Source: a virus
IMG/VR virus record: IMGVR_UViG_3300037297_000342
Reading direction: 5' to 3' (one strand)
Length of the DNA stretch: 18,457 nucleotides
In this document: one piece after another, positions 1 to 13,150 of the stretch
How positions within the stretch are numbered: position 1 is the first letter of the stretch
Layout: each line of letters starts with the position of its first letter
Notes under the pieces: generated by a model
Database searches by the model: none
What the model was told of the DNA's origin: nothing
The model's input: only the letters and a program-made list of their open reading frames with translations
Translations under genes and position numbers: made by a program

Positions 1-2282
1 AGGCCGTCAACGTCGGCGAGGGCCAGGCTTGCCTCGCCGGGGTTCCCGGCGCAGGCAAGACCGGCACCATCGTGGCGCGTGTCGCCAGGATGGTCGCCGA
101 CGGCCTCGACCCCGAGTACATCCTCTGCATGACGTTCACCCGAGCGGCGGCGCAAGAGATGAACGAGAGGCTCAAGCAGCTCGGCATCGTCGGTGCGCGG
201 GTGGGCACCATCCACTCCGTGTGCCGGCAGATCATCGCCGCCGACACGCATCTGCTCGAGGAGTTCGACCTCGACGAGAAGAACAGGCTGCCGATGGAGC
301 TGAAGAAGACCCTCGGCGACCTGAGGAAGAAAAAGAAGATCCCCAACGCCGGGGTGGACCTCGAGGGCGTGTCCCGGTACGTCGAGGCCTGCAAAGCCAA
401 GGGCCTCTGCTACATCTACTCCGACCCCTTTGGCCTGAACATGCGGGCCGAGGAGTTCTTGCTGCGCCAGGCCGAGAAGTGGACCATGCTGGCCGGGCTG
501 CCTCGCCAGATCCTGATGGACGTCTACATCGAGCTGGAGCGGCGCCGAGGCATCGCCGGGCTCTACGACTTCAACGACATGCTGCTCTGGTCCTGGATGG
601 TCCTGCTCACCGACGAGGATGCCCGGGAGCGGTGGCGAGGTCGCTGGTCCGTGGTCATCGTCGACGAGGCGCAGGATTCCAACCCCGTGCAGTGGGACAT
701 CGCCCGGTTCCTCGTTGGTCTGAACTCCTGCATGAAGGAGGTCGACGAGCTGCCCATGGCGCCGCGGGTGCGGGACTGCGCGCACAACCTGATGGTCGGC
801 GGGGATCCCTCGCAGTCCATCTACGCCTGGCGCTCGGCCGAGCCCTCGCTGTTCGTCGAGTTCGCCAAGAACAAGAACGTGGATGAGCTGACCTTGCCCA
901 TCAACTACCGCTCCAACCCGATGATCTGCGCCATTGGCACCGGGCTGGTGCAGGGCAAGCCGTGGCACATCACCGGGGAGATCAAGGCAGCCTCGGAGGA
1001 CATGACGACCGACGCCGTGGCCATCGACCGCTACGACGACGCCGCCTCCGAGGCCGAGGGCGTCATCCAGCAATGCGTCGAGATCGCCGAGAGCGGCGAG
1101 GGGCTCAGGTCCTGCGCGGTGCTCTCGCGGCTTCGGGTGGCGCTGGACCTGGCGGAGATCGCCTGCATCTCCCGGCGCATCAAGTACGTCAAGATGGCCA
1201 GCGGCTCGTTCTTCGAGTCGCGAGAGGTGCGGGACATCCTCGCCTACCTACGCGTGGCCTCGGGCTACGACCCCGACGGGCGCTGGGTCGCCCACATCAT
1301 CAACCGTCCGTTCCGCTACATCGGCAAGGGCTTCATCAACAAGTGCTCGGCCGACGCGATGAACCGGGACATCTCGCTGCTCGACGCGATGATCGCCAAC
1401 GAGGATGACCTGAGCTACAGACAGCGCGGCTCCATCGAGGACCTCTACAAGCTGCTGCAGCGTCTGAATCAGATCGCGGCCTGGGCCGAGCAGCGCGAGG
1501 CCTACCACCGCGAGAAGCTGGAGAAGGCCAAGCAGGCGGGCGACCCGCTCGAGGAGTTGCTCAAGCTGAGGGACGAGGTGCCCACCGAGCTGCTGGACAC
1601 CCTGGCCGACGCCCGGGGCGACATCGAAGGCATCGGCATGGGCGGGATGGGGGCACGGCGCCGGGCACGGCGAGCCCGGGAGGAAGCCAACCCGGAGGAC
1701 GTGGCCGAGGAGTTGAACAGCGCCGGGCCGGCGGAGATGATCGCCCTGGTCCTGCGGGAGACCGACTACCTGGAGGAGCTACGCCGGGAGGAGGGCCTGC
1801 TGGGCATGGACGAATCCAAGGCGGCGATGTTGGCGGCGCTGCAGCGCATGGCTCGGTCCTTCAAGACCACGAAGGAGTTCCTGGCCTACGTGGACAAGCT
1901 GACGGTGGCGGTCAAGCAGGCACGCAAGACTGGCCTGAAGGTGCGAGAGGGCTCGAACACGGACGCCCTGGTGCTCTCCACCATCCACCGGGCCAAGGGC
2001 CTGGAGTGGAAGCACGTGTTCCTGATGGACGTGGTGCAGGGCCGACTGCCCAACGCCCGGGCCGAGGACCCGGATGAGGAGCTGCGCCTGTTCTACGTGG
2101 CGATCACCAGGGCCATCAAAACCTGTAGGGTGTCTTACACAATGCCGCCCGAGCCAGAAGACCAGGAAGAGGGGGCAAGCGCCCCCCGCCGCCGGACGGA
2201 ACAGGTGGGCAAGTCGTCTTATATAACTCGGCTGGAGCAAGAAATAGACAAGTTCGCAAGGGGTGTAAGCGAGACCAGATAA
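1..2282 (+). CDS. UvrD/PcrA/Rep-family SF1 DNA helicase, 5'-partial (reading frame runs off the window start; codon phase begins at nt 3)
   Basis: The frame is open from nt 3 and encodes the Walker A sequence 'LAGVPGAGKTGT' before the first Met at 72. Helicase motifs are present: II 'VVIVDEAQDSNPVQW', III 'GGDPSQSIYAWR', V 'STIHRAKGLEWKHVF', VI 'LFYVAITRA'. Stop codon TAA at 2280-2282. Confidence 0.9.
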   Translation, partial: AVNVGEGQACLAGVPGAGKTGTIVARVARMVADGLDPEYILCMTFTRAAAQEMNERLKQLGIVGARVGTIHSVCRQIIAADTHLLEEFDLDEKNRLPMELKKTLGDLRKKKKIPNAGVDLEGVSRYVEACKAKGLCYIYSDPFGLNMRAEEFLLRQAEKWTMLAGLPRQILMDVYIELERRRGIAGLYDFNDMLLWSWMVLLTDEDARERWRGRWSVVIVDEAQDSNPVQWDIARFLVGLNSCMKEVDELPMAPRVRDCAHNLMVGGDPSQSIYAWRSAEPSLFVEFAKNKNVDELTLPINYRSNPMICAIGTGLVQGKPWHITGEIKAASEDMTTDAVAIDRYDDAASEAEGVIQQCVEIAESGEGLRSCAVLSRLRVALDLAEIACISRRIKYVKMASGSFFESREVRDILAYLRVASGYDPDGRWVAHIINRPFRYIGKGFINKCSADAMNRDISLLDAMIANEDDLSYRQRGSIEDLYKLLQRLNQIAAWAEQREAYHREKLEKAKQAGDPLEELLKLRDEVPTELLDTLADARGDIEGIGMGGMGARRRARRAREEANPEDVAEELNSAGPAEMIALVLRETDYLEELRREEGLLGMDESKAAMLAALQRMARSFKTTKEFLAYVDKLTVAVKQARKTGLKVREGSNTDALVLSTIHRAKGLEWKHVFLMDVVQGRLPNARAEDPDEELRLFYVAITRAIKTCRVSYTMPPEPEDQEEGASAPRRRTEQVGKSSYITRLEQEIDKFARGVSETR

Positions 2283-2891: not shown

Positions 2892-3150
2892 GCGTCAGGG
2901 CGGGGCCCTTCGCCAGGTCCCTCGCCCGCACCCACTGCGGCTGGTCCAGCTGGGCCATGAAGAGCTCCAGCAACGCCCGGGCCAGTGGGATTCCCGGGGC
3001 GGCCTCCACCGACAGGCAGGCCTCGAAATCATCTGGCAGCTGATGTTTGGAACGGAGCGCGTTGATGCGCTCAGTGCAGAACCTGTGGAAGGATGGGTCC
3101 CGACGTGCCTCCAACAGGGCGTACTCGACTTGAGTCTGATGTGTCAGCAT
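2875..3150 (-). CDS. hypothetical small protein (very uncertain; the ORF extends to 3177 but would then overlap the upstream ATPase gene by about 107 nt)
   Basis: A minus-strand ORF with high GC3 fills the 179-nt gap between convergent genes. No SD, no domain. Could be an artefact. Confidence 0.2.
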   Translation of the reverse strand: MLTHQTQVEYALLEARRDPSFHRFCTERINALRSKHQLPDDFEACLSVEAAPGIPLARALLELFMAQLDQPQWVRARDLAKGPALTLIPAQ

Positions 3151-4318
3151 TTGGTTCAGGTAGCTCGGGCACCACAACGTGCTCTTGCAGCTCCTCCTCG
3201 AGAATTGCTTCCTCCTCTTTTACCATGTATTCCGCGAGGTCGACAAGGCTGATCTTCTTCAAGGCCTGCCACGCCGGGACCATGCGTGTGCGGGAGCCGT
3301 CGGGACCGAAGGGCTTCGGCAGCTCTGCATTCTTGTCGGCCAAGCCTTCTTCCTCCAAGGCCATCAGGGCCTGCAGTATCTTCTCGGGGCGAACGCCGAG
3401 AGTCGCAGCGACGTCCTGGTTGGTCATCGGGACCGTCGCGTCGCGCAGCACCTTGTAGCAGGCATGCTTCCAGTATTCGAGCACGACGCCGGAGTGGTCC
3501 TTGTCGTTATAGAAAGCAAAGGTGACCTGCTTCAGCTCGTCGTCGTTGCGTGGGACAGCCGAGAACACATGCCCCTTCTTCCCGTTGCGCTGCTTGAGAC
3601 TCTCGACGGTGACGATCTCCGTCTCGCCGGAGGGGAGCCCGAGCTTCTTCTTCCAGGTCTTGACGTGGAGCACAGCGTCGGCCCAGCCGTACCAAGCCGA
3701 AGAGCCGCGGGGCGTGGGGTCCTTGCCCTTCGTCTCGTGGTGAATGATGATGAACGAGGTCTGGTACTCGTCGACCATCCGGTCTACTGCCCGACGGAGA
3801 GCCTTGGTCTCCTTCGACGAGTTCTCGTCGCCGCTGAAGAACGAGTCGAGGGGGTCGAGCACGACCACGATGGGCTCGATGGTCTTGATGACTTGCTCAA
3901 GCTCCTCGGTGTCGAGGGCATCGTCGAGGCAGAAGGGCTGCTGGCAGAAGTAGAGGGGAAGCTCAGCCGGGTTGACCGCATGGGCTCTGGCGTGAGCGAG
4001 GAGCCGGTCCTTGTTGTCGAAGATGGACCCCTCCGTGGAGTTGAGCAGGACCGGCCCGAACTTGTTGACCGTAAACTGCCGCAAAAGCATGCGTTCGGCG
4101 CTCAGGGCCACACAGAGGTCGAAGATTATGGTTGACTTGTACGTGCCCCCCTGGCCAAATACTAAGGTTCGGCCCGCTCGGGGGATCATGTTTTCAACGA
4201 TCCAGCGGTCCGGGTCGTCCTTGAGCGCCAGCAAATCCTTAACGGTGTAAATCTGGTGGGACCTGCGGGCCAAGTTGCCTCCTGTCTCTACCGTAGAAGT
4301 TGCTGTGCGGTGCGTCAA
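3071..4318 (-). CDS. AAA_25/RepA-like (DnaB-C-terminal-like) RecA-fold ATPase with C-terminal winged-helix domain; probable replicative helicase/loader-type protein
   Basis: 'DLLALKDDPDRWIVENMIPRAGRTLVFGQGGTYKSTIIFDLCVALS' (P-loop), 'IVVVLDPLDSF' (Walker B), 'IIIHHETKG'. The C-terminal 'MTNQDVAATLGVRPEKILQALMALEEEGL' is wHTH-like. TTG start at 4316-4318, with a weak GGTGA SD. Confidence 0.8.
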   Translation of the reverse strand: MTHRTATSTVETGGNLARRSHQIYTVKDLLALKDDPDRWIVENMIPRAGRTLVFGQGGTYKSTIIFDLCVALSAERMLLRQFTVNKFGPVLLNSTEGSIFDNKDRLLAHARAHAVNPAELPLYFCQQPFCLDDALDTEELEQVIKTIEPIVVVLDPLDSFFSGDENSSKETKALRRAVDRMVDEYQTSFIIIHHETKGKDPTPRGSSAWYGWADAVLHVKTWKKKLGLPSGETEIVTVESLKQRNGKKGHVFSAVPRNDDELKQVTFAFYNDKDHSGVVLEYWKHACYKVLRDATVPMTNQDVAATLGVRPEKILQALMALEEEGLADKNAELPKPFGPDGSRTRMVPAWQALKKISLVDLAEYMVKEEEAILEEELQEHVVVPELPEPNADTSDSSRVRPVGGTSGPILPQVLH

Positions 4319-4632
4319 GGAATCACCGGATCCGTTGGGCTCCGGCGATGGTTGACCCTTCTACCACGGCGAAGATCTTCGGCGCAACAATTTTGTGAGA
4401 TTCTTGTGAGGTCTCAGGGATTTCTGAGAGATCTTGCTCCCTTGTGAAATAGTTATTGACAAGGGAGATCCAACTGAGGTATTGGTGCTGTTCGATGCAC
4501 TCGGTCACCCTCCAAGATCCGCTGGAGGGCTGCGTTCTATCGTGGCCCACAAGATGGCCAGGACTCTGCAAGCTGGAGGCCTGCCCACCCGAGCGGTTTG
4601 ACAGCCTGCGCCGGATCCCTGGGGTCCGGCCC
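4319..4632. promoter_or_regulatory. Divergent intergenic control region between the - strand ATPase gene and the + strand SNF2 gene; candidate promoter/operator/origin
   Basis: Perfect 9-bp inverted repeat ctcccttgt(4437-4445)/acaagggag(4459-4467), spacer 13 nt. TTGACA hexamer at 4456-4461. TTGTGAG direct repeats at 4393 and 4404, and TTGTGAA at 4442. 7-bp inverted repeat ccctcca(4508-4514)/tggaggg(4523-4529). Confidence 0.4.
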
Positions 4633-6318
4633 ATGGAGAACAAGAAGAAGCCAGAGGAGACAGGTTGGTACGTGCCGCAGTCGCTCCTCGACATGGGCCT
4701 GTTGCCAGCCAACCTTGAGGACTACGATCCCGAGCCGAACGACAGGACACCGTCGGGCTTGAAGCTCCGTCGGTATCAGGCTCGCACGGTGACCTTCCTT
4801 CGTCAGACGACCACGATGCGTGAGGGTAATCTGCTGTGGGCGGACCCCGGCCTCGGCAAGACTGTCTCCTCGCTGCAAGCCAACTGGCTCGACGGCTACC
4901 TGCAGCGCCCCGGGCTCATCGTCGGACCGAACATCGCCAAGGGCGTTTGGTGCGACGACGATTCCGACGCCAAGGTGCACTACAACCTGACGGTGTTGTC
5001 CCTGGAGGGGATGAAGAACATTGACCCGGGGTTCCTCGAGCACCACAACTGCTTCTTCTGCCACTACGAGATCCTGCAGGCGTGGCAGCCGTGGATATTC
5101 GCCACGCTCAAGCCTGCCTGGATGATTCTCGACGAGAGCCACTTCCTGATCCACCAGAAAGCCCAGCGCTCCAAGGCAGCACGGCAGCTCGCCCTGTGCA
5201 ACACCATCGAGCGACGCTTCTGCCTCACGGGCACAGCCATCCCCAACGAGAGGCTGGACCTGTGGAACCAGGTGGCGACCTGCCAGCCCCGACAGTGGGG
5301 CCCCTCGCACCACGACTTCGGCGTTCGCTACTGCGGCGGCCAGCGCATGGCCCCCGAGGATGGCGGCCACTGGACCTATGAGGGTGAGAGCAACACCGAC
5401 GAGCTTCGCGCCAGGCTGGCCGGCACGGTGCTGCGCTACACGACCGAGGAAGTCGGCGACGAGCTGCCTCCGATGGAGCGCCACGTCATCGAGGCTGAGG
5501 GCATCGAGGAGCACCTGCTCGACGACTACTCGCTGGCTCAGCGCGACACCATCGGCTACCTCAAGCTCAAAGGCAAGATTCCCGACGAGGCGGCCACGAT
5601 CACGCTCGGCAACACGACCATCAAGCTGTCGAAGAATGACCGCAAGCCGGGCGCCGCGCGACTGGTCTGCCTGACGACGCTGATCGGCATCCTGTCGGAG
5701 ATGAAGCAGGCCGCCGCGATCAAGGCTGTCATCTCCATCCTCGGCCAACACAACCGACTCGTCGTGTTCACCTGGCGACGGAAGACGGCAGAGTATATAT
5801 ACGACAAGATCGCCGGCATGGTTGCCTCCGGGGTGAAGATCTCCGGCAAGAGCCCGATGGTCTACGGGCCGGTCCACGGCGAGATGGACATGAAGGAGCG
5901 CAAGGCGCTCGCCAAGGAGTTCGCCAAGGACGAGTGCAGCATCTACATCGCCACGATGGGCTCGGCCGGCACCTCCATCAACACCCTGTCGGCAGCCTCG
6001 GCCTGCTTGCTGGTGGACCTGCACTGGAACACCTCACAGCTGCGCCAGGCCGAGAAGCGGGTGCACCGCGATGGCTGCACCGCGGAGAAGGTCGACATCT
6101 ACTACCTGGTGGTCAGGCAGACGGTGGACGATCTCTTCATCGAGAAGCTGGAGCAGAAGGCCAGGGAGGCGATGAAGATTGCCCCACGGGACGAGAGTGA
6201 CCTGTCGCTGGTCCGCGACTTGACACCTGAGAAGGCCTCGGGCGAGTTCGATTTCGAGCTGCTGTGTGCGAGGCTGATGGACTACGACGCAGAATGGGAA
6301 GAAGGAGTTATGGCATGA
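4633..6318 (+). CDS. SNF2-family (DEAD/DEAH-like) helicase
   Basis: 'LRRYQARTV' Q-motif region, 'LLWADPGLGKTVSSL' (motif I), 'MILDESHFL' (motif II, DExH), 'LTGTAIPNERLDLWNQV' (SNF2 motif III), helicase-C region with 'QAEKRVHRDG' (motif VI). Start taken at ATG 4633 (MENKKK...). The in-frame TTG at 4456 lies inside the operator-like repeat and encodes a W/C-rich peptide. Confidence 0.85.
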   Translation: MENKKKPEETGWYVPQSLLDMGLLPANLEDYDPEPNDRTPSGLKLRRYQARTVTFLRQTTTMREGNLLWADPGLGKTVSSLQANWLDGYLQRPGLIVGPNIAKGVWCDDDSDAKVHYNLTVLSLEGMKNIDPGFLEHHNCFFCHYEILQAWQPWIFATLKPAWMILDESHFLIHQKAQRSKAARQLALCNTIERRFCLTGTAIPNERLDLWNQVATCQPRQWGPSHHDFGVRYCGGQRMAPEDGGHWTYEGESNTDELRARLAGTVLRYTTEEVGDELPPMERHVIEAEGIEEHLLDDYSLAQRDTIGYLKLKGKIPDEAATITLGNTTIKLSKNDRKPGAARLVCLTTLIGILSEMKQAAAIKAVISILGQHNRLVVFTWRRKTAEYIYDKIAGMVASGVKISGKSPMVYGPVHGEMDMKERKALAKEFAKDECSIYIATMGSAGTSINTLSAASACLLVDLHWNTSQLRQAEKRVHRDGCTAEKVDIYYLVVRQTVDDLFIEKLEQKAREAMKIAPRDESDLSLVRDLTPEKASGEFDFELLCARLMDYDAEWEEGVMA

Positions 6319-6394: not shown

Positions 6395-7471
6395 ATGACC
6401 CAGCAACCGCCACCGCAACAAGGAATGATCGGCGAGCCCCTGCAGCCAGGGGTGCCGGGTCAGCCAGCCCCGCAAGAAGATGGCGTCATCCCGCAACCTC
6501 CGACACCGGACCAGGCCGCCCAGATGGGCGTCTACGCCGCGTCGCAGGAAGCGCTGGTGGCATCGGGTGTCCAGGCCGTGACGGGGCAGCAGGCGCTGAT
6601 GCAAGCCCAGCAGCAGGCAGCCCCAACGACGCGCATCACGGACCCAGACCTGCACTTCCCGGGTCAGAGCACCGTGAAGCAGGGCGTGACCGTGTTCCTG
6701 TTCGGTTCGGTGGGCACCTGGAAGACGACTTGGGCGGGCCAGTGGCCCAAGCCGCTGTTCCTCTCGGTCGGAGCCGAGGGTGGCGACGACGCCTTGGCCA
6801 TGCTGCCATCGCTGTACGGCGTGGCCGCCCCGCCATCCTTCCACATCACCTCCTCGGAGATGATGTACGAGAAGGTGAACGCCATCAGGGCGAACTACCT
6901 GGCGTGGGACGTCAACACCGTCGTCGTCGACTCGATCACCTACTACGTGGACATGTGGATCGCTCAGCTGATGGCCAAGCGCTACAACGACCCCAAGATC
7001 AAGAAGAAGATCGAGGATGCTGGAGGCATGGCCACCAACATGACGATGCGTGACTGGGGCATCCTGGCCATGCACATCCGCGACCTGGCGATGATGCTCC
7101 ACAACACGGGGCTCAACGTCATCTGGATCGGTCTCGAGAAGGAGGTCAAGGAGTCGGACGGTCAGGGGGGCGGCAGCCGCACCGTCGCAGTCGAGCCCTA
7201 CATCCGAGGCGAGACGGCGCTGAAGCTCCCGGGCATGTGCAAGATGATCATCCACGCCCACAAGGACCTGAAGCCCGACCCGAACGCGATGGGCCGGATG
7301 ATGATTCAGCCGGTCTACTACACCTCACCCAACTGGCTCACGAAGATCGTGCGTCACAAGTACGGCCTGGCATTCCCGGAGGGGAAGCTGGTCGACCCTG
7401 AGCTCGGGGACTACCCGACCTTCAGGGCGCTGTGGAGTCGAATCGGTCAATTCGTCTACGCGACGGCGTGA
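6395..7471 (+). CDS. Sak4-like (AAA_24) RecA-fold recombination ATPase with about 100-aa P/Q-rich N-terminal extension
   Basis: Strong SD GAGGAGAGGAG at 6378-6388. P-loop 'VFLFGSVGTWKTTWAG', Walker B 'VVVDSITYY', 'NVIWIGLEKEV'. Immediately followed by a DUF669-like SSB gene, the typical phage Sak4 module arrangement. Confidence 0.75.
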   Translation: MTQQPPPQQGMIGEPLQPGVPGQPAPQEDGVIPQPPTPDQAAQMGVYAASQEALVASGVQAVTGQQALMQAQQQAAPTTRITDPDLHFPGQSTVKQGVTVFLFGSVGTWKTTWAGQWPKPLFLSVGAEGGDDALAMLPSLYGVAAPPSFHITSSEMMYEKVNAIRANYLAWDVNTVVVDSITYYVDMWIAQLMAKRYNDPKIKKKIEDAGGMATNMTMRDWGILAMHIRDLAMMLHNTGLNVIWIGLEKEVKESDGQGGGSRTVAVEPYIRGETALKLPGMCKMIIHAHKDLKPDPNAMGRMMIQPVYYTSPNWLTKIVRHKYGLAFPEGKLVDPELGDYPTFRALWSRIGQFVYATA

Positions 7472-7523
7472 CCGTTCAATAACCGGAAGTACAACTGCAA
7501 CCGACACTAGAAGGAGAACGACC

Positions 7524-8246
7524 ATGAGTAACGGAGGAGGATTCCTTCCCATCAACCTCAACAACGTGCAGCCGGCCGTCGGGTTCGACTACCCGCCGGG
7601 TCTGTACATGTTCCAGGTCGAGTCGACCGAGATCCGGACCAACAACGATGGCTCCGGGCAGCGTCTGCTCGTCAACAACACCATCGTCATGGGCCCGGGC
7701 CCGTCGACGCAGTTCCAGGGACGGAAGCTGGCCAACAGCTACCAGCTCTCGGAGAAGGGTGCGCCCTTCCTGAAGCGCATGTTCCTGTCCTGCGGCATCA
7801 CCGACGAGTTCATCGCCCAGAACGGCGGGAACGTCCAGGCCGAGTGGCTGCACGGGCGCCAGTACGTGGCCCAGGTCATCAAGCAGGGCACCTACACCAA
7901 CATCACCAACGAGCGTCCGCTCAGCGAGTGGGACGCGGCGGTGAAGCAGGGCGGCGGCAACAGCGGGCAGGTCCAGCAGCCGGGCACCACCCCGGCGGCC
8001 CAGCCCTCCCTGCTCCAGCCGGTCGCGGCCCCCGCCGCCGCCCCGGCGCCCGTGGCCCAGCCGCAGCCGGTCGCGCAGCCCATGGCCCAGCCCATGGCCC
8101 AGCCGCAGATGGCCGCCCCGGTGGCCCAGCCGGCCCCCGTGGCGCAGCCGCAGCTGCCCCAGCCCCAGGCCGCCATGCCGGCCCCGCAGGCCGCCCCGGC
8201 GGGGATCCCCGCCCCGGCGCCCCCTCCGGGCAAGGTGGGCCAGTAG
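7524..8246 (+). CDS. DUF669-like phage ssDNA-binding protein (Sak4 partner) with long P/A/Q-rich C-terminal tail
   Basis: SD AAGGAGA at 7511-7517, 6 nt before the ATG. An N-terminal globular part of about 150 aa is followed by a roughly 90-aa low-complexity tail (PVAQPQPVAQPMAQPMAQPQ...). The assignment rests on position after Sak4 and the domain architecture; I could not run a similarity search. Confidence 0.55.
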   Translation: MSNGGGFLPINLNNVQPAVGFDYPPGLYMFQVESTEIRTNNDGSGQRLLVNNTIVMGPGPSTQFQGRKLANSYQLSEKGAPFLKRMFLSCGITDEFIAQNGGNVQAEWLHGRQYVAQVIKQGTYTNITNERPLSEWDAAVKQGGGNSGQVQQPGTTPAAQPSLLQPVAAPAAAPAPVAQPQPVAQPMAQPMAQPQMAAPVAQPAPVAQPQLPQPQAAMPAPQAAPAGIPAPAPPPGKVGQ

Positions 8247-8265
8247 TAGTCTGACCTGAAGGCAA

Positions 8266-8332
8266 CGACCCGGGGCGGGTCAACAAAGCCACCAAACATA
8301 CATACGAGTGCATCCCGCCCCGGGTCGTTTTT
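8266..8332 (+). terminator. Putative rho-independent terminator: 14-bp perfect GC-rich stem (8266-8279 / 8314-8327), unusually large 34-nt loop, then TTTTT (8328-8332)
   Basis: cgacccggggcggg ... cccgccccgggtcg followed by ttttt, 20 nt after the SSB-like gene stop (8246). Confidence 0.5.
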
Positions 8333-8879: not shown

Positions 8880-9054
8880 AGTGGACAGCAGCCGCATCCG
8901 CGTTTGCGTGCAATGCAAGAACGAGTGGGAGTTCACTGAGAAGGAGGAGCGCTTTCTCCGCGAGAAGTTCGGCGTCGGCTTCAAGGAGCCTCGACGCTGC
9001 ATCCCCTGTCGCAAGGCTAACCGTGAGGCCGAGGACTCCAGAGGCAACCGCTGA
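8866..9054 (+). CDS. small zinc-ribbon protein (CxxC...CxxC)
   Basis: 62 aa. 'CVQCKNEW...(24 aa)...CIPCRK'. Overlaps the upstream gene by 14 nt and the downstream gene by 1 nt (TGATG). Confidence 0.45.
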   Translation: MTQHEVDSSRIRVCVQCKNEWEFTEKEERFLREKFGVGFKEPRRCIPCRKANREAEDSRGNR

Positions 9055-9629
9055 TGCCCATGCAGCTCCCAGGCTTGCAGTACGGCCGGCCTGCGGGCAA
9101 GTACCAACATGGTCTGCTGGCGCAGCCCAACTGCGCCGAGTGCCCCCTGATGATGGACACCAAGGTCTACCCGGACGGCCCGGTGCCGGCGAGGTTGGCC
9201 TTCGTGGGTGAGGAGCCAGGCGACACCGAGATCGCAGAGGGTCGCGGCTTCATCGGTCCCTCCGGGCAGCTGCTCTGGCACCTGGCTGCCCACGTCGGCA
9301 TCGATCGCAGTGAGGTCTGGGTCTCGAACGCGGCGCTGTGCAAGGCGCGCAAGATCTTCCTGTCCAACGGCGCCGTGATCCCTCTGCCGGTGGTCAAGGC
9401 CATGGCGGCGCAGGCGTGTCGGTCGAGGCTGATCAACGAGCTCATCGGAGTGGACCCCGTGGTCATCGTGCCCCTGGGCAACTGGGCACTGTGGGCGCTA
9501 TCAGACATCCCCAAGGCGAGGATCTACGGCTATCGAGGCTCACGTCTCGAGGTGGACCTGAAAATCCTCGCAGACCGAATCGCACGGGGCATGACCCAGG
9601 CGCCCATCCGGCAGGTGCAGAATGCCTAA
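9054..9629 (+). CDS. uracil-DNA glycosylase superfamily, family-4-like (UDG-like) protein
   Basis: Family-4 motif A 'GEEPGDTEIAEGRGFIGPSGQLL'. N-terminal Cys pair 'NCAECPL' plus later Cys residues, consistent with the Fe-S family-4 fold. 191 aa. Confidence 0.7.
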   Translation: MPMQLPGLQYGRPAGKYQHGLLAQPNCAECPLMMDTKVYPDGPVPARLAFVGEEPGDTEIAEGRGFIGPSGQLLWHLAAHVGIDRSEVWVSNAALCKARKIFLSNGAVIPLPVVKAMAAQACRSRLINELIGVDPVVIVPLGNWALWALSDIPKARIYGYRGSRLEVDLKILADRIARGMTQAPIRQVQNA

Positions 9630-9849
9630 GATGCGCCTGATCGCCGTGGAGGAGCCGCAGTTCCGCGACCGCTGGCGCATCGGCATCTCCGGGGCGAACG
9701 GGGGGAATGGGCGTGTGCCAGGCTGGGAGAACGCCAGGTTCTACTCCTACTCGGCCTGCGCCACGGCCATCGACTGGATCGAGAAGTTCGGCGGTTCGTA
9801 TGCCGCCTATCTATCGTGGAAGAAACAACATCGAGGTAAAGGAGAGTAG
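9622..9849 (+). CDS. hypothetical small protein
   Basis: 75 aa. High GC3. Fills the gap between the UDG-like gene and the MVP-like gene. Alternative start at ATG 9631. Confidence 0.4.
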   Translation: MPKMRLIAVEEPQFRDRWRIGISGANGGNGRVPGWENARFYSYSACATAIDWIEKFGGSYAAYLSWKKQHRGKGE

Positions 9850-9853
9850 AGCA

Positions 9854-12424
9854 ATGGAAGAATCGGAGCGCAGAGGCAAGATCCTGGTGGTGCCTCCTGG
9901 CTCGTTCGCCTACGTGTTGGACGAGAACAAGGGCGACATCACCACCTTCGTCGGACCGCAGAAGAAGGACCTGACGGCGCAGGACATCCCGGTCGTCTTC
10001 GACGCCGACGAGGACGAGTTCCGCAGGGTGTCCATGAAGGAGGCCATCATCCCGCTCTACCGGGCCGAGGTGGACTCCTACATCATCCTGGAGAACCCCG
10101 CGGTGAGGGGCGAGCACCCCGTGGAGGGCAAGAGCACCAACGAGGCCGAGCGCCTGCGCCACGGCGTGAAGGAGAACGTCCCCGGGCCGTGCGCCTTTGC
10201 CCTGTGGCCGGGCGAGGTGGCCACCGTGGTGCCGGGGCACCGTCTGCGCCGGAACCAGTACCTCTACGTCCGCATCTACGACGCGGAGGAGGCCAACAAG
10301 AACCCCAACGCCGTCTACGGCGGCCAGGCGCCACCGGTTCGTGAGGGAGAGAACCCCGAGGGCTTCTTCGTCGGCCAGGAGATCAAGATCACGGGCGAGG
10401 ACGTGAGCTTCTACATGCCGCCGACAGGCGCTGAGGTCGTGCCGGTGGACGCGAACAACGAGGAGTACGTCCGCGACGCCGAGACCCTGCAGAAGCTGGA
10501 GTACGCGGTGCTCGTCTCGGACAAGGGCGAGAAGCAGTACTGCTACGGCGAGAGCGTCGTCTACCCCGACCCGTACCAGCACTTCGAGGTGCGCGAGGGC
10601 AAGCGCAAGTTCCGGGCCATCGAGCTCTCGGAGATCTCCGGCGTCTACGTCAAGGTCATCAAGCCCTACGAGGAGAACGGCCACCAGTACAAGGAGGGCG
10701 ACGAGCTCTTCATCACGGGCGCAGAGAAGACCATCTACTTCCCGCGTCCCGAGCACGCCGTCATCAAGTACGGCAAGGAGACCCGCCACTTCGCCGTGGC
10801 CATCCCGCCTGGAGAGGGCCGCTACGTTCTCGACCGGATGAGCGGCGAGATCAAGATCGAGCGGGGCCCCCAGATGCTGCTGGCGGACCCTCGCACCCAC
10901 GTCATCACCAAGCGAGTCCTCACCGACTCCGAGTGCCGGCTGCTCTACCCCGGAAACGACGAGGCCCTCGAGTACAACCGCAGCCTGCGCCGAGCCCTGA
11001 GCACGACCATGGAGGACGCCGACGCCGCCATCTCCGCGGAGATGGTCGCCTCGCTGTCCAACGTCGGCGGCGGCACGGTGGGCCAGGCCATGTACTCCTC
11101 GGCGCTGGCTCCCGACCGGGCCACGGCGATGGGCGACATGCTGCTGAAGTCGCCCTCATCCGAGGTGGTCGGCGACTCCTTCGACCGGAAGGTCAAGCAC
11201 ACCAAGCCGCGCACGGTCATCCTCGACACCAAGTACGAGGGCGTGGTCACGGTCAAGGTCTGGAACGGCTACGCCGTCCAGGTGGTCAACCGGGCCGGGG
11301 AACGGCGCGTGGAGCGCGGCCCCAAGACGGTCCTGCTCGAGTACGACGAGACGCTGGAGAAGCTCTCCCTGTCCACGGGGAAGCCCAAGAACACCGACAA
11401 CAACATCGAGACGGACTACCTCAAGGTCACCGGCAACTATGTGACCGATGTCATCATCGACATGGAGACCGCCGAGATGGTGCCCGTCGAGGCCAAGGTC
11501 AAGTTCAAGGTGGACTTCGAGGGTGACGAGAACGAGTGGTTCAACGTCGACAACTACGTCAAGCTGCTCTACGACCGGGCTCGGTCCATCATCAAGGCGG
11601 CCATCAACAGGACTCCTGTCGGCGTCCTGCGCAACGAGAAGGCAGCGGTCATCCGCGACGCCATCCTGGGCAAGAAGCCCGAGGATGGAAGTGAGCGCAA
11701 GGGCCTGGCCTTCGCCGAGAACTCGATGCGGGTGACGGACGTCGACGTCCTGAGCCTGAAGATCAACGACGAGGAAGTCGCCGGGATGCTGGCCGAGGCC
11801 CAGCGCGCCAGCCTGAAGGGCATGGCCCGGGTGGCCCAGCGCGAGGCCGAGCTGGCGAACCAGACCCGTCTGGAGGAGATCGACCGGTTGCTGGCCGAGG
11901 CGGCCCACATCACGGCCACGCGCAAGCTGGAGCTGCAGGAGCAGCACAAGGACGAGACTCAGAAGGCGCTGATGGCCGAGGAGACCCGCAAGAAGGCCTA
12001 CGAGGAGACCCGGGACGCCCGGGCGCTCGCCGGCCGGGAGCGTCAGCTGGAGCTCGAGGGCAAGGTCCGCGAGGGCCTGCTGGCCGACCACGAGCTCGCG
12101 ATGCAGAAGGCCAGGGAGCAGCAGACCCTGGCGCTGGAGAACCTGAAGGCCCAGGTGCAGGCAGTGATCGACAAGGCCCAGGCCATGGACCCGCACGTCG
12201 CGGTGGCCCTGGAGCGGCTGACGGACGAGGTGTTCCTGCGCGGCATCACCGAGGGTTTCGGGGAGTGGGCGGCAGTCAAGGGTATCGGCTTGGCCGAGGC
12301 GGCCAAACAGGTCCTCGACTTCATGCCTGAGGGCAAGTTCGAGGTGCTCAGGCACATCGGACAGGCCGGGACGAGGAGCGGCAACGGGGAGGGCGAGCCC
12401 CGCGTGCCACGCCGTCACGGCTAG
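9854..12424 (+). CDS. Major Vault Protein (MVP) homologue: MVP repeat domains + SPFH-like shoulder + cap-helix coiled coil
   Basis: SD AAGGAGAG at 9838-9845. N-terminal 'ILVVPPGSFAYVLDENKGDITTFVGPQK' matches MVP repeat 1 '[28 protein letters not shown]'. A second copy 'IPPGEGRYVLDRMSGEIKIERGPQ' occurs. 'VTDVIIDMETAE' matches MVP 'FTDVITIETAD'. 'FAENSMRVTDVDVLSLKINDEEVAGMLAEAQRASL' matches the MVP shoulder '[33 protein letters not shown]'. A coiled-coil stretch of more than 130 aa (ELANQTRLEEIDRLLAEA...KAQVQAVIDKAQ) corresponds to the cap-helix. 857 aa versus about 860-890 aa for eukaryotic MVP. Confidence 0.8.
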   Translation: MEESERRGKILVVPPGSFAYVLDENKGDITTFVGPQKKDLTAQDIPVVFDADEDEFRRVSMKEAIIPLYRAEVDSYIILENPAVRGEHPVEGKSTNEAERLRHGVKENVPGPCAFALWPGEVATVVPGHRLRRNQYLYVRIYDAEEANKNPNAVYGGQAPPVREGENPEGFFVGQEIKITGEDVSFYMPPTGAEVVPVDANNEEYVRDAETLQKLEYAVLVSDKGEKQYCYGESVVYPDPYQHFEVREGKRKFRAIELSEISGVYVKVIKPYEENGHQYKEGDELFITGAEKTIYFPRPEHAVIKYGKETRHFAVAIPPGEGRYVLDRMSGEIKIERGPQMLLADPRTHVITKRVLTDSECRLLYPGNDEALEYNRSLRRALSTTMEDADAAISAEMVASLSNVGGGTVGQAMYSSALAPDRATAMGDMLLKSPSSEVVGDSFDRKVKHTKPRTVILDTKYEGVVTVKVWNGYAVQVVNRAGERRVERGPKTVLLEYDETLEKLSLSTGKPKNTDNNIETDYLKVTGNYVTDVIIDMETAEMVPVEAKVKFKVDFEGDENEWFNVDNYVKLLYDRARSIIKAAINRTPVGVLRNEKAAVIRDAILGKKPEDGSERKGLAFAENSMRVTDVDVLSLKINDEEVAGMLAEAQRASLKGMARVAQREAELANQTRLEEIDRLLAEAAHITATRKLELQEQHKDETQKALMAEETRKKAYEETRDARALAGRERQLELEGKVREGLLADHELAMQKAREQQTLALENLKAQVQAVIDKAQAMDPHVAVALERLTDEVFLRGITEGFGEWAAVKGIGLAEAAKQVLDFMPEGKFEVLRHIGQAGTRSGNGEGEPRVPRRHG

Positions 12425-12707: not shown

Positions 12708-13150
12708 TGGCCTTCACCTGTCCAAAGTGCGGCATGACCTCGCACCATCCGAAGGATGAGGAGTTCGGCTACTGCGGCAACTGCCACGAGTTCACCGGGC
12801 GCAAGCCGCAGCCCTTGCGCATCGTGGACTATTTCCACCTCATGCACCCATCGGTGCCACGTGAGACCTGGGAGCAGATGCGCAAGCTGGCCGAGACACT
12901 CAAGGGCCTGGCCGAGGAGTGGGCGGCCAAGGGCGGTAGGTTCATCTGGCCGCACGAGCTGCCTGACCCGCCGCCCACCGTCACGCTGACTCCATACTTC
13001 GCGAACCCCGGGGGCATCACGATGCCCCGGGCGACGCTGGAGGAGGCTGCCGAGCTGCGCTTCGTCACCGACAAGGGCCGCCTCGGCACCGCGGTGGAGG
13101 TCATGATCGACCAGATGCTACCGAAGGAGTTCGAGCCAGACGAGGAGTGA
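12707..13150 (+). CDS. zinc-ribbon domain protein (CPKCG...HH...YCGNCHEF)
   Basis: 'MAFTCPKCGMTSHHPKDEEFGYCGNCHEF' is an N-terminal C4/C2HC zinc ribbon. 147 aa. Its stop overlaps the polymerase start. Confidence 0.55.
   Translation: MAFTCPKCGMTSHHPKDEEFGYCGNCHEFTGRKPQPLRIVDYFHLMHPSVPRETWEQMRKLAETLKGLAEEWAAKGGRFIWPHELPDPPPTVTLTPYFANPGGITMPRATLEEAAELRFVTDKGRLGTAVEVMIDQMLPKEFEPDEE

Follow-up and report, generated by a model that had tools for sequence, protein, structure and literature searches.

The viral DNA stretch analysed here (18,457 nucleotides of IMG/VR record IMGVR_UViG_3300037297_000342; hereafter the window) contains two adjoining plus-strand genes. The first, open reading frame (ORF) A (6395–7471; 358 amino acids), encodes a Sak4-like AAA_24 ATPase with a RecA fold, and the second, ORF B (7524–8246; 240 amino acids), encodes a predicted single-stranded DNA (ssDNA)-binding protein (SSB) from a divergent branch of the DUF669 superfamily. 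Both proteins carry low-complexity segments rich in proline, glutamine and alanine, as an N-terminal extension in ORF A and as a C-terminal tail in ORF B. The tail of ORF B ends in a conserved, proline-rich tip that, we propose, would bring ORF A to ORF B-coated ssDNA.

The window has a GC content of 64% and its plus strand holds a phage-type replication and recombination cluster, in which a single gene (AAA_25) lies on the minus strand. The window matches Logan contig SRR12668987_20601, and its interval 6395–8246 is base-for-base identical to that contig and to one from SRR12150540. Related phage contigs of 97–194 kb keep a constant order of PDDEXK nuclease, UvrD, small ORF, AAA_25 (minus strand), SNF2, AAA_24, ORF B, UDG and PolA, and also encode terminase and anti-CBASS genes; ORF B is directly 3′ of the AAA_24 gene in all 11 related loci with upstream sequence. 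Narrower queries for related loci returned one and then four IMG/VR loci (five hits, four distinct), as well as two metagenome loci. The phage to which ORF A and ORF B belong is large, uncultured and high in GC. In GenBank phages, megablast gave no match to the whole window and tblastn found nothing for ORF B (E ≤ 1e-3) or ORF A (E ≤ 1e-10). Two scans of GTDB genomes yielded no relatives; the element is therefore not a prophage of a sequenced species.

The possibility that the low-complexity parts are non-coding or misframed was rejected on the basis of the ribosome-binding sites, the composition of third codon positions, conserved starts and the motifs that are conserved in homologues of both extensions. 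Good Shine–Dalgarno sequences precede the ATG of ORF A at 6395 (GGAGAGGAG) and that of ORF B at 7524 (GAAGGAG), with a gap of 52 nt between the two genes. In the ORF B tail, read in its annotated frame, GC content at third codon positions reaches 0.99, and the start of ORF A, MTQQPPP, is found again in the relative P0035. We also rejected a genome-wide composition bias as the source of the extensions, as a comparison of the 19 ORFs in the window shows a P/Q/A content of 60% or more to be sustained over a stretch in ORF A and ORF B only, apart from a single borderline segment of 30 amino acids in one further ORF.

ATPase core and N-terminal extension of ORF A

ORF A matches Pfam AAA_24 (PF13479) over amino acids 98–302 (3e-14; 53.7 bits, cut-off 27) and PHROG 124, ‘Sak4-like ssDNA annealing protein’ (1.4e-24). 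Together with the constant adjacency of the two genes, these matches bear out a preliminary description of the locus, made from the sequence alone, as a Sak4-like ATPase followed by an SSB-like partner. The AlphaFold2 (AF2) model of ORF A has a predicted local distance difference test (pLDDT) score of 85, and its top Foldseek matches in the PDB are RAD51 paralogues, RecA and RAD51 (1.6e-7 to 1e-5). The model comprises the RecA/Rad51 core fold without RecA's C-terminal DNA-binding domain or Rad51's N-terminal one; beyond the core there is no further folded domain, only the disordered N-terminal extension.

The family-conserved core begins with the motif DPDLHFPG (amino acids 83–90; 6641–6664), in which D83, P89 and G90 are nearly invariant in 65 aligned sequences. 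The Walker A motif that follows, GSVGTWKTT (amino acids 104–112; 6704–6730), is deviant, with Trp at the usual Gly site before the Lys. Across the same 65 sequences G104, G107, K110 and T111 are invariant and position 109 is W, I, R, M, L or Q, never G, giving the clade-wide consensus G-x-x-G-[TS]-[W/I/R/M/L/Q]-K-T-[TS]; neither ORF A nor any of the 65 clade members has a canonical GxxxxGK[ST]. In the Walker B-like sequence TVVVDS (6917–6934), T175, D179 and S180 are invariant, and E128 is invariant or nearly so. The invariance of the P-loop Lys and Thr, the Walker B Asp and E128 suggests that nucleotide binding has been kept, and ssDNA binding and single-strand annealing, which are ATP-dependent activities of Sak4-like recombinases, are putative activities of ORF A. 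With the P-loop altered throughout the clade, RecA-core proteins of this type may or may not still depend on ATP. One homologue of ORF A (P0098; 608 amino acids) additionally matches Pfam PF13392 (HNH_3) and PF14890 (Intein_splicing), a combination that suggests insertion of an intein close to the P-loop in this Sak4-like ATPase.

The replacement of the P-loop Gly in all 65 sequences and the presence of RAD51 paralogues among the top structural matches would also accord with a different role, in which ORF A is not an annealase but a degenerate or regulatory RecA-fold subunit similar to Rad51 paralogues, or an accessory or loader ATPase of the replisome, and ORF B is the replicative SSB. The similarity of ORF A to the characterized Sak4 of phage HK620 is very weak, and the module lies in a replication cluster rather than in a lambda-style recombination operon. 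We nevertheless regard such a role as very improbable in view of the invariant nucleotide-binding residues, the PHROG assignment and the upstream PDDEXK nuclease and UvrD helicase, which would supply ssDNA ends for an annealase.

The N-terminal extension had been put at about 100 amino acids; it exists, but its length is about 80 amino acids, as D83 is where the family-conserved core starts. Q, P, A and G are abundant in the extension (53% Q+P+A), which has two parts. Amino acids 1–49 (6395–6541) form a Q/P/G-rich low-complexity N terminus that varies in length and sequence among homologues and is predicted to be disordered (pLDDT of 50–61 over amino acids 1–50). The second part is a semi-conserved motif, SQEALVASGVQAVTGQQALMQAQ (amino acids 50–72; 6542–6610), with pLDDT values of 68–85 and a predicted helix at amino acids 64–73, which is common to the long-extension subclade that includes ORF A, in the form Q(E/G)ALVxxGxxxVxGxQAL. 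Speculatively, this motif of about 23 amino acids may lie against the ATPase core or against an adjacent protomer, in the style of the RecA/Rad51 polymerization motif.

Among 72 homologues of ORF A, the segment before DPDL could be scored in 58; it measures 35 amino acids or fewer in 37 of these and 50–93 amino acids in the other 21. Short forms are genuine in the related loci L004, L008, L010 and L012, in which 5–15 codons separate the upstream stop from the core match (the extension is about 6 amino acids long in L008 and L012). Long extensions are scattered over at least five lineages in a neighbour-joining tree of the ORF A core. The extension is an optional, patchy add-on in some lineages.

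Domain, linker and tip of ORF B

ORF B consists of an OB-like globular domain (amino acids 1–142; 7524–7949), confidently predicted by AF2 (pLDDT of more than 90 over amino acids 20–140), and a long C-terminal tail. DUF669 proteins, with their evolved OB fold and acidic C-terminal tails, have been put forward as a family of SSBs (PMC4889955), and a DUF669-type protein of HK620 has been established experimentally as an SSB (PMC5928155). The route from ORF B to this family runs through fold and profile comparisons. Foldseek of the ORF B model against BFVD returned 95 phage proteins at E ≤ 1e-3, including ‘DUF669 domain-containing’ and ‘single stranded DNA binding’ proteins (E of 1e-8 to 1e-6). 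With a profile of the domain (A2), 184 proteins were retrieved from 1.84 billion representatives, and 56 of the 143 profile relatives that were scanned match PF05037 (DUF669), with a best E of 7.3e-15 (17 of 57 in the closer set and 39 of 86 in the more distant set); hhalign aligns profile A2 with profile A5 at 99.9% probability. ORF B has the same predicted, highly evolved OB-like fold as DUF669 and N4-type SSBs (PMC4889955) and is connected with DUF669 by profile search.

Other searches were less informative. PHROG matches are weak (phrog_2300, function unknown, 4.9e-5; phrog_6015, ‘SSB’, 2.7e-4), PF00436, the canonical SSB OB domain, is not matched, a profile search of the PDB turned up no SSB, and PDB sequence searches with profiles A1 and A5 gave just low-complexity noise, such as the Ala/Pro linkers of E2 acyltransferases. 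PrgE of plasmid pCF10 (PDB 8S4S; PMC11137577), which has 128 amino acids in the crystal chain, is 13% identical to ORF B; unlike ORF B it is a plasmid-conjugation protein without a long disordered C-terminal linker or proline-rich tip, and it is not paired with an AAA_24 protein. ORF B is the only recognizable SSB candidate in the replication module, and its indirect affiliation with the DUF669 superfamily suggests that it is probably the SSB of this phage. Binding to ssDNA is predicted from the fold and the gene context, and the conserved aromatic residues Y23, Y28, F82, W108, Y124 and W136 are candidates for base stacking.

The tail extends from approximately amino acid 143/146 to amino acid 240. 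At about 95 amino acids and 72% P+A+Q (net charge, +1), it agrees with the P/Q/A-rich tail of about 90 amino acids noted before, and its pLDDT of 43–68 is, like that of the first 50 residues of ORF A, consistent with the disorder supposed for both extensions. All 31 close homologues of ORF B, which are without exception metagenomic and unannotated, have the tail, with lengths of 55–151 amino acids. Their alignment divides it into a proximal motif, an unalignable variable stretch rich in P, Q, A and M, and a strongly conserved tip. The proximal motif, AAQPSLLQPV (7995–8024), takes the form P(S/A)(L/M)LQP across the 31 homologues, with P161 nearly invariant; it lies around 20 residues past the domain and occurs in all related loci except L004, for which the compared part of the tail starts farther on. 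The tip, AGIPAPAPPPGKVGQ (8199–8243), has the consensus G(I/M/L/F)PAPxPPPGxVGQ, in which P231 and P234 are invariant and P225, G227, P233 and G236 nearly so. It contains no acidic residue: whereas DUF669 proteins have acidic C-terminal tails (PMC4889955), the tails and tips of the ORF B clade are uncharged and proline-rich.

Between the two motifs, the tail is made of xAQP-type units of four amino acids, which form a repeat block in the variable linker (amino acids 175–215; 8046–8168); 27-nt direct repeats are also present. Tandem Repeats Finder (TRF) reports a period of 12 with 2.4 copies and a 100% match at 8076–8104, within a looser 5.6-copy array at 8064–8133. The 12-nt direct repeat previously placed at about 8082–8105 is therefore real, with coordinates that were about 3 nt off. 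The nearest relative, P0001 (92% identical), is 96% identical to ORF B in the domain and 76% in the tail, and it differs by a 9-amino-acid indel (PVAQPMAQP) that falls exactly within the repeat block and leaves both tail motifs unchanged. The tail is thus length-variable, as had been anticipated from its repeats, and it evolves fast through repeat indels while keeping two fixed motifs. Conservation of two short motifs rather than of bulk composition suggests specific docking. We propose that linker length is free to change by replication slippage because only flexibility and composition would be under selection.

With its tail, ORF B has the layout of an SSB, in which a disordered linker connects the fold to an interaction tip, except that this tip is of a neutral polyproline type and not acidic. 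E. coli SSB has the same three-part architecture, with an OB domain, a 56-amino-acid, G/Q/P-rich intrinsically disordered linker and the acidic tip DDDIPF. In both proteins a low-complexity linker of fast-evolving length leads to a conserved terminal peptide, which in E. coli is an interaction hub, and the E. coli linker drives cooperativity and phase separation (10.1101/797431, PMC7145534). The two proteins differ in their OB family and in the tip, which is not acidic in ORF B. Disordered, length-variable linkers and linker-driven phase separation are known among SSBs (10.1101/797431, PMC7145534, PMC12143593); it is normal for an SSB to have a long disordered linker, and such extensions are not the unusual feature for which they had been taken. 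In a sample of the wider superfamily, a long P/Q/A tail with a proline-rich tip is present in 93 of 174 sequences, acidic ends in 15 and short tails in 37. One of the acidic ends, …SEFDDVPF (P0189), is a near-copy of the bacterial SSB C-terminal peptide (SSB-Ct).

Recruitment of the ATPase by the SSB tip

The two extensions had been viewed as matching. The ORF B tail is universal in its clade, whereas most scorable ORF A relatives have only a short extension. In 17 pairs encoded on the same contig, the lengths of extension and tail are not significantly correlated (Spearman 0.39, p = 0.12), and mismatches occur, such as the 12-amino-acid extension and 145-amino-acid tail of L004; extension and tail therefore do not form a matched pair. 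These observations bear on the idea, raised in the preliminary description, that both P/Q/A-rich extensions are jointly sticky and mediate mutual recruitment or a shared condensate on ssDNA. The extensions are alike in composition (Q/P/A/G/V) and are the sole sustained segments of this type in the window, and E. coli SSB does phase-separate through its disordered linker (10.1101/797431; PMC12143593). A joint condensate is, however, distinctly unlikely in our judgement: among relatives with a long-tailed ORF B, the ORF A extension is mostly short or absent, its distribution over the tree of the core is patchy, and what the tail conserves is two short motifs.

The closest experimental precedent is the Sak4 of HK620 (HkaL) and its SSB (SSB_HK620, HkaK), which, like ORF A and ORF B, pair a RecA-core-only AAA_24 ATPase with a following non-canonical OB-type SSB. 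Annealing by HK620 Sak4 is stimulated by the adjacent DUF669 SSB, the last six residues of which Sak4 requires for binding to SSB-coated ssDNA, and around 80% of sak4 genes adjoin an ssb gene (PMC5928155). The C-terminal tip that is required in HK620 has its counterpart in the strongly conserved tip of ORF B. The pairs also differ: HK620 Sak4 has 226 amino acids, no N-terminal extension and the P-loop GESGTGKS, compared with 358 amino acids, an extension of about 80 amino acids and GSVGTWKTT in ORF A; the HK620 SSB has 195 amino acids and a short polar tail that ends in NDYPPF, compared with a P/A/Q linker of about 95 amino acids that ends in the neutral PAPAPPPGKVGQ in ORF B; and sequence similarity between the two pairs is near the noise level.

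We favour the view that ORF A and ORF B form a single-strand-annealing and SSB module of the replication–recombination region in which the tip of ORF B recruits ORF A, and assign it a probability of about 0.55. The DUF669-type, OB-like domain of ORF B would coat ssDNA, probably made by the upstream nuclease and helicase genes or by replication. The disordered, repeat-built linker would then present two docking motifs, PSLLQP near the domain and the proline-rich peptide at the C terminus. By analogy with the last six residues of the HK620 SSB, the tip would contact the Sak4-like protein and recruit it, possibly with other replisome proteins, onto the coated ssDNA, where ORF A would anneal complementary strands for recombination-dependent replication or repair.

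Several results weigh against this proposal. The profile of the ORF A clade has no significant hhalign match to the single HK620 Sak4 sequence (E = 0.007, probability of 5%), and that of the ORF B clade has none to the HK620 SSB (E = 0.085). Annealing by HK620 Sak4 is ATP-dependent and the P-loop of ORF A is altered; Trp, Ile or Arg before the P-loop Lys could mean that ATPase activity is weakened or lost. ORF B itself matches nothing in Pfam, neither as a full protein (E ≤ 0.01) nor as the domain alone (E ≤ 10), DUF669 (PF05037) included, so that its earlier assignment to DUF669 stands through profile search and fold matches and not through a direct match. This failure is not disqualifying, because the validated HK620 SSB likewise has no DUF669 match at E ≤ 0.01 in the present Pfam release. 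Finally, the true partner of the tip could be PolA, SNF2, UDG, the AAA_25 helicase or a host protein.

This last point amounts to an alternative in which the tip docks elsewhere: on the phage polymerase or helicases, on its own OB domain as an autoinhibitory contact, or on a host protein such as RNA polymerase. The SSB of phage N4 activates late transcription through the host RNA polymerase. PolA, UDG, SNF2 and the AAA_25 helicase are encoded alongside ORF B as constantly as AAA_24 is, the N4 SSB belongs to the DUF669-related group (PMC4889955) and the tips of SSBs generally have numerous partners (PMC10164576, PMC7145534). We think it unlikely that the tip serves these partners instead of ORF A, as the sole experimental precedent for a DUF669 SSB is the tip-dependent stimulation of an adjacent Sak4 (PMC5928155) and tip type shifts together with the Sak4 subclade; the two options are, moreover, mutually compatible.

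The link between tip type and Sak4 subclade is seen at all nine loci of proline-tip SSBs with a readable partner P-loop, in which the SSB gene adjoins that of a Sak4-like protein with a deviant G..G[TS][WMIR]KT. A more distant proline-tip SSB (P0150) adjoins an AAA_24 protein with GSPGSWKT. On the other side, the acidic-tip DUF669 protein P0189 adjoins an ATPase with the canonical GHPGAGKT, and in HK620 the tip NDYPPF is paired with the likewise canonical P-loop of its Sak4. As judged from these sequences, the pattern accords with a joint evolution of SSB tip and ATPase partner. It separates two deep clades and therefore represents approximately one evolutionary event, which also counts against recruitment of ORF A by the tip.

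Tentatively, and with the odds somewhat against it, PSLLQP and G(I/M)PAPxPPPGxVGQ may define an undescribed class of non-acidic SSB C-terminal peptides that replaced the acidic SSB-Ct in a large uncultured DUF669 clade (at least 93 clusters at 50% identity) and co-evolved with a Sak4 subclade that has Trp, Ile or Arg in its P-loop. If so, the handshake between SSB and recombinase would have been rewired, possibly with an altered nucleotide dependence. The pairing of Sak4 with an SSB, the dependence on the SSB tip and the link between DUF669 and SSBs are already published (PMC2896510, PMC5928155, PMC4889955). Three features appear to be undescribed in the literature that we retrieved: a large DUF669-type SSB clade in which PSLLQP is combined with a neutral polyproline tip, the association of this clade with Sak4-like proteins of a subclade devoid of the P-loop Gly, and the optional N-terminal extension of ORF A with its conserved motif.

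Sak4–SSB pairs could serve as recombineering tools and are targeted by anti-phage defence systems and by phage satellites, and the SSB tip is a known switch that loads the annealase. A neutral polyproline tip that does the job of the near-universal acidic SSB-Ct would widen the repertoire of recognition between SSBs and their partners and provide a testable peptide–protein pair; otherwise, the locus is an orderly case of the familiar fold–linker–tip design in an unsampled lineage of high-GC phages.

Neighbouring genes

Upstream of ORF A, the window contains a UvrD-like helicase gene (72–2282, plus strand), the start of which is cut by the window edge, the AAA_25 RecA-fold ATPase gene (3071–4318, minus strand; E = 6.7e-29) and a SNF2 helicase gene (4456–6318, plus strand). 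The AAA_25 protein has a weak C-terminal match to a Crp-like helix–turn–helix (5.7e-5, below the gathering score), and its gene, the only one of the cluster on the minus strand, keeps its place and orientation in all related phage loci. Its product could be a replicative helicase or an initiator.

ORF B is followed on the plus strand by a hairpin and U-run (8264–8332) with a perfect, GC-rich 16-bp stem (8264–8279 paired with 8314–8329). RNA folding gives −39.1 kcal/mol (z = −4.5), and none of 200 shuffled sequences is as stable. The structure is likely to be a transcription terminator with a loop of unusual size (34 nt), owing to which a simple terminator scan overlooked it. The genes that follow, all on the plus strand, encode a treble-clef zinc finger (between ORF B and UDG in the gene list), UDG (9054–9629), a major-vault-protein-like ORF (9707–12424; called gene, 9854–12424, 856 amino acids) and a family A DNA polymerase (PolA; 13147–15153). 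Pfam matches of the vault-like ORF are to MVP_shoulder (1.4e-15) and Vault_3 (8.2e-10); PHROG gave none. The ORF sits between UDG and PolA in this phage only and is missing from the syntenic loci L003–L006; the first phage major vault proteins, from gut phages, are reported in a 2023 preprint (10.1101/2023.11.10.566534).

Related contigs carry anti-CBASS/anti-Thoeris sponge genes (Acb2/Tad1-hairpin and Acb5) near the AAA_24 gene, at L004:14654–14872, L005:16395–16622 and L021:1604–1819, in the last case immediately upstream of AAA_24. In L015 (2451–3330), the locus of a distant proline-tip relative of ORF B (P0163), genes for PTPS and a GTP cyclohydrolase I/QueF-like protein directly follow UDG; such genes are hallmarks of 7-deazaguanine DNA modification pathways.

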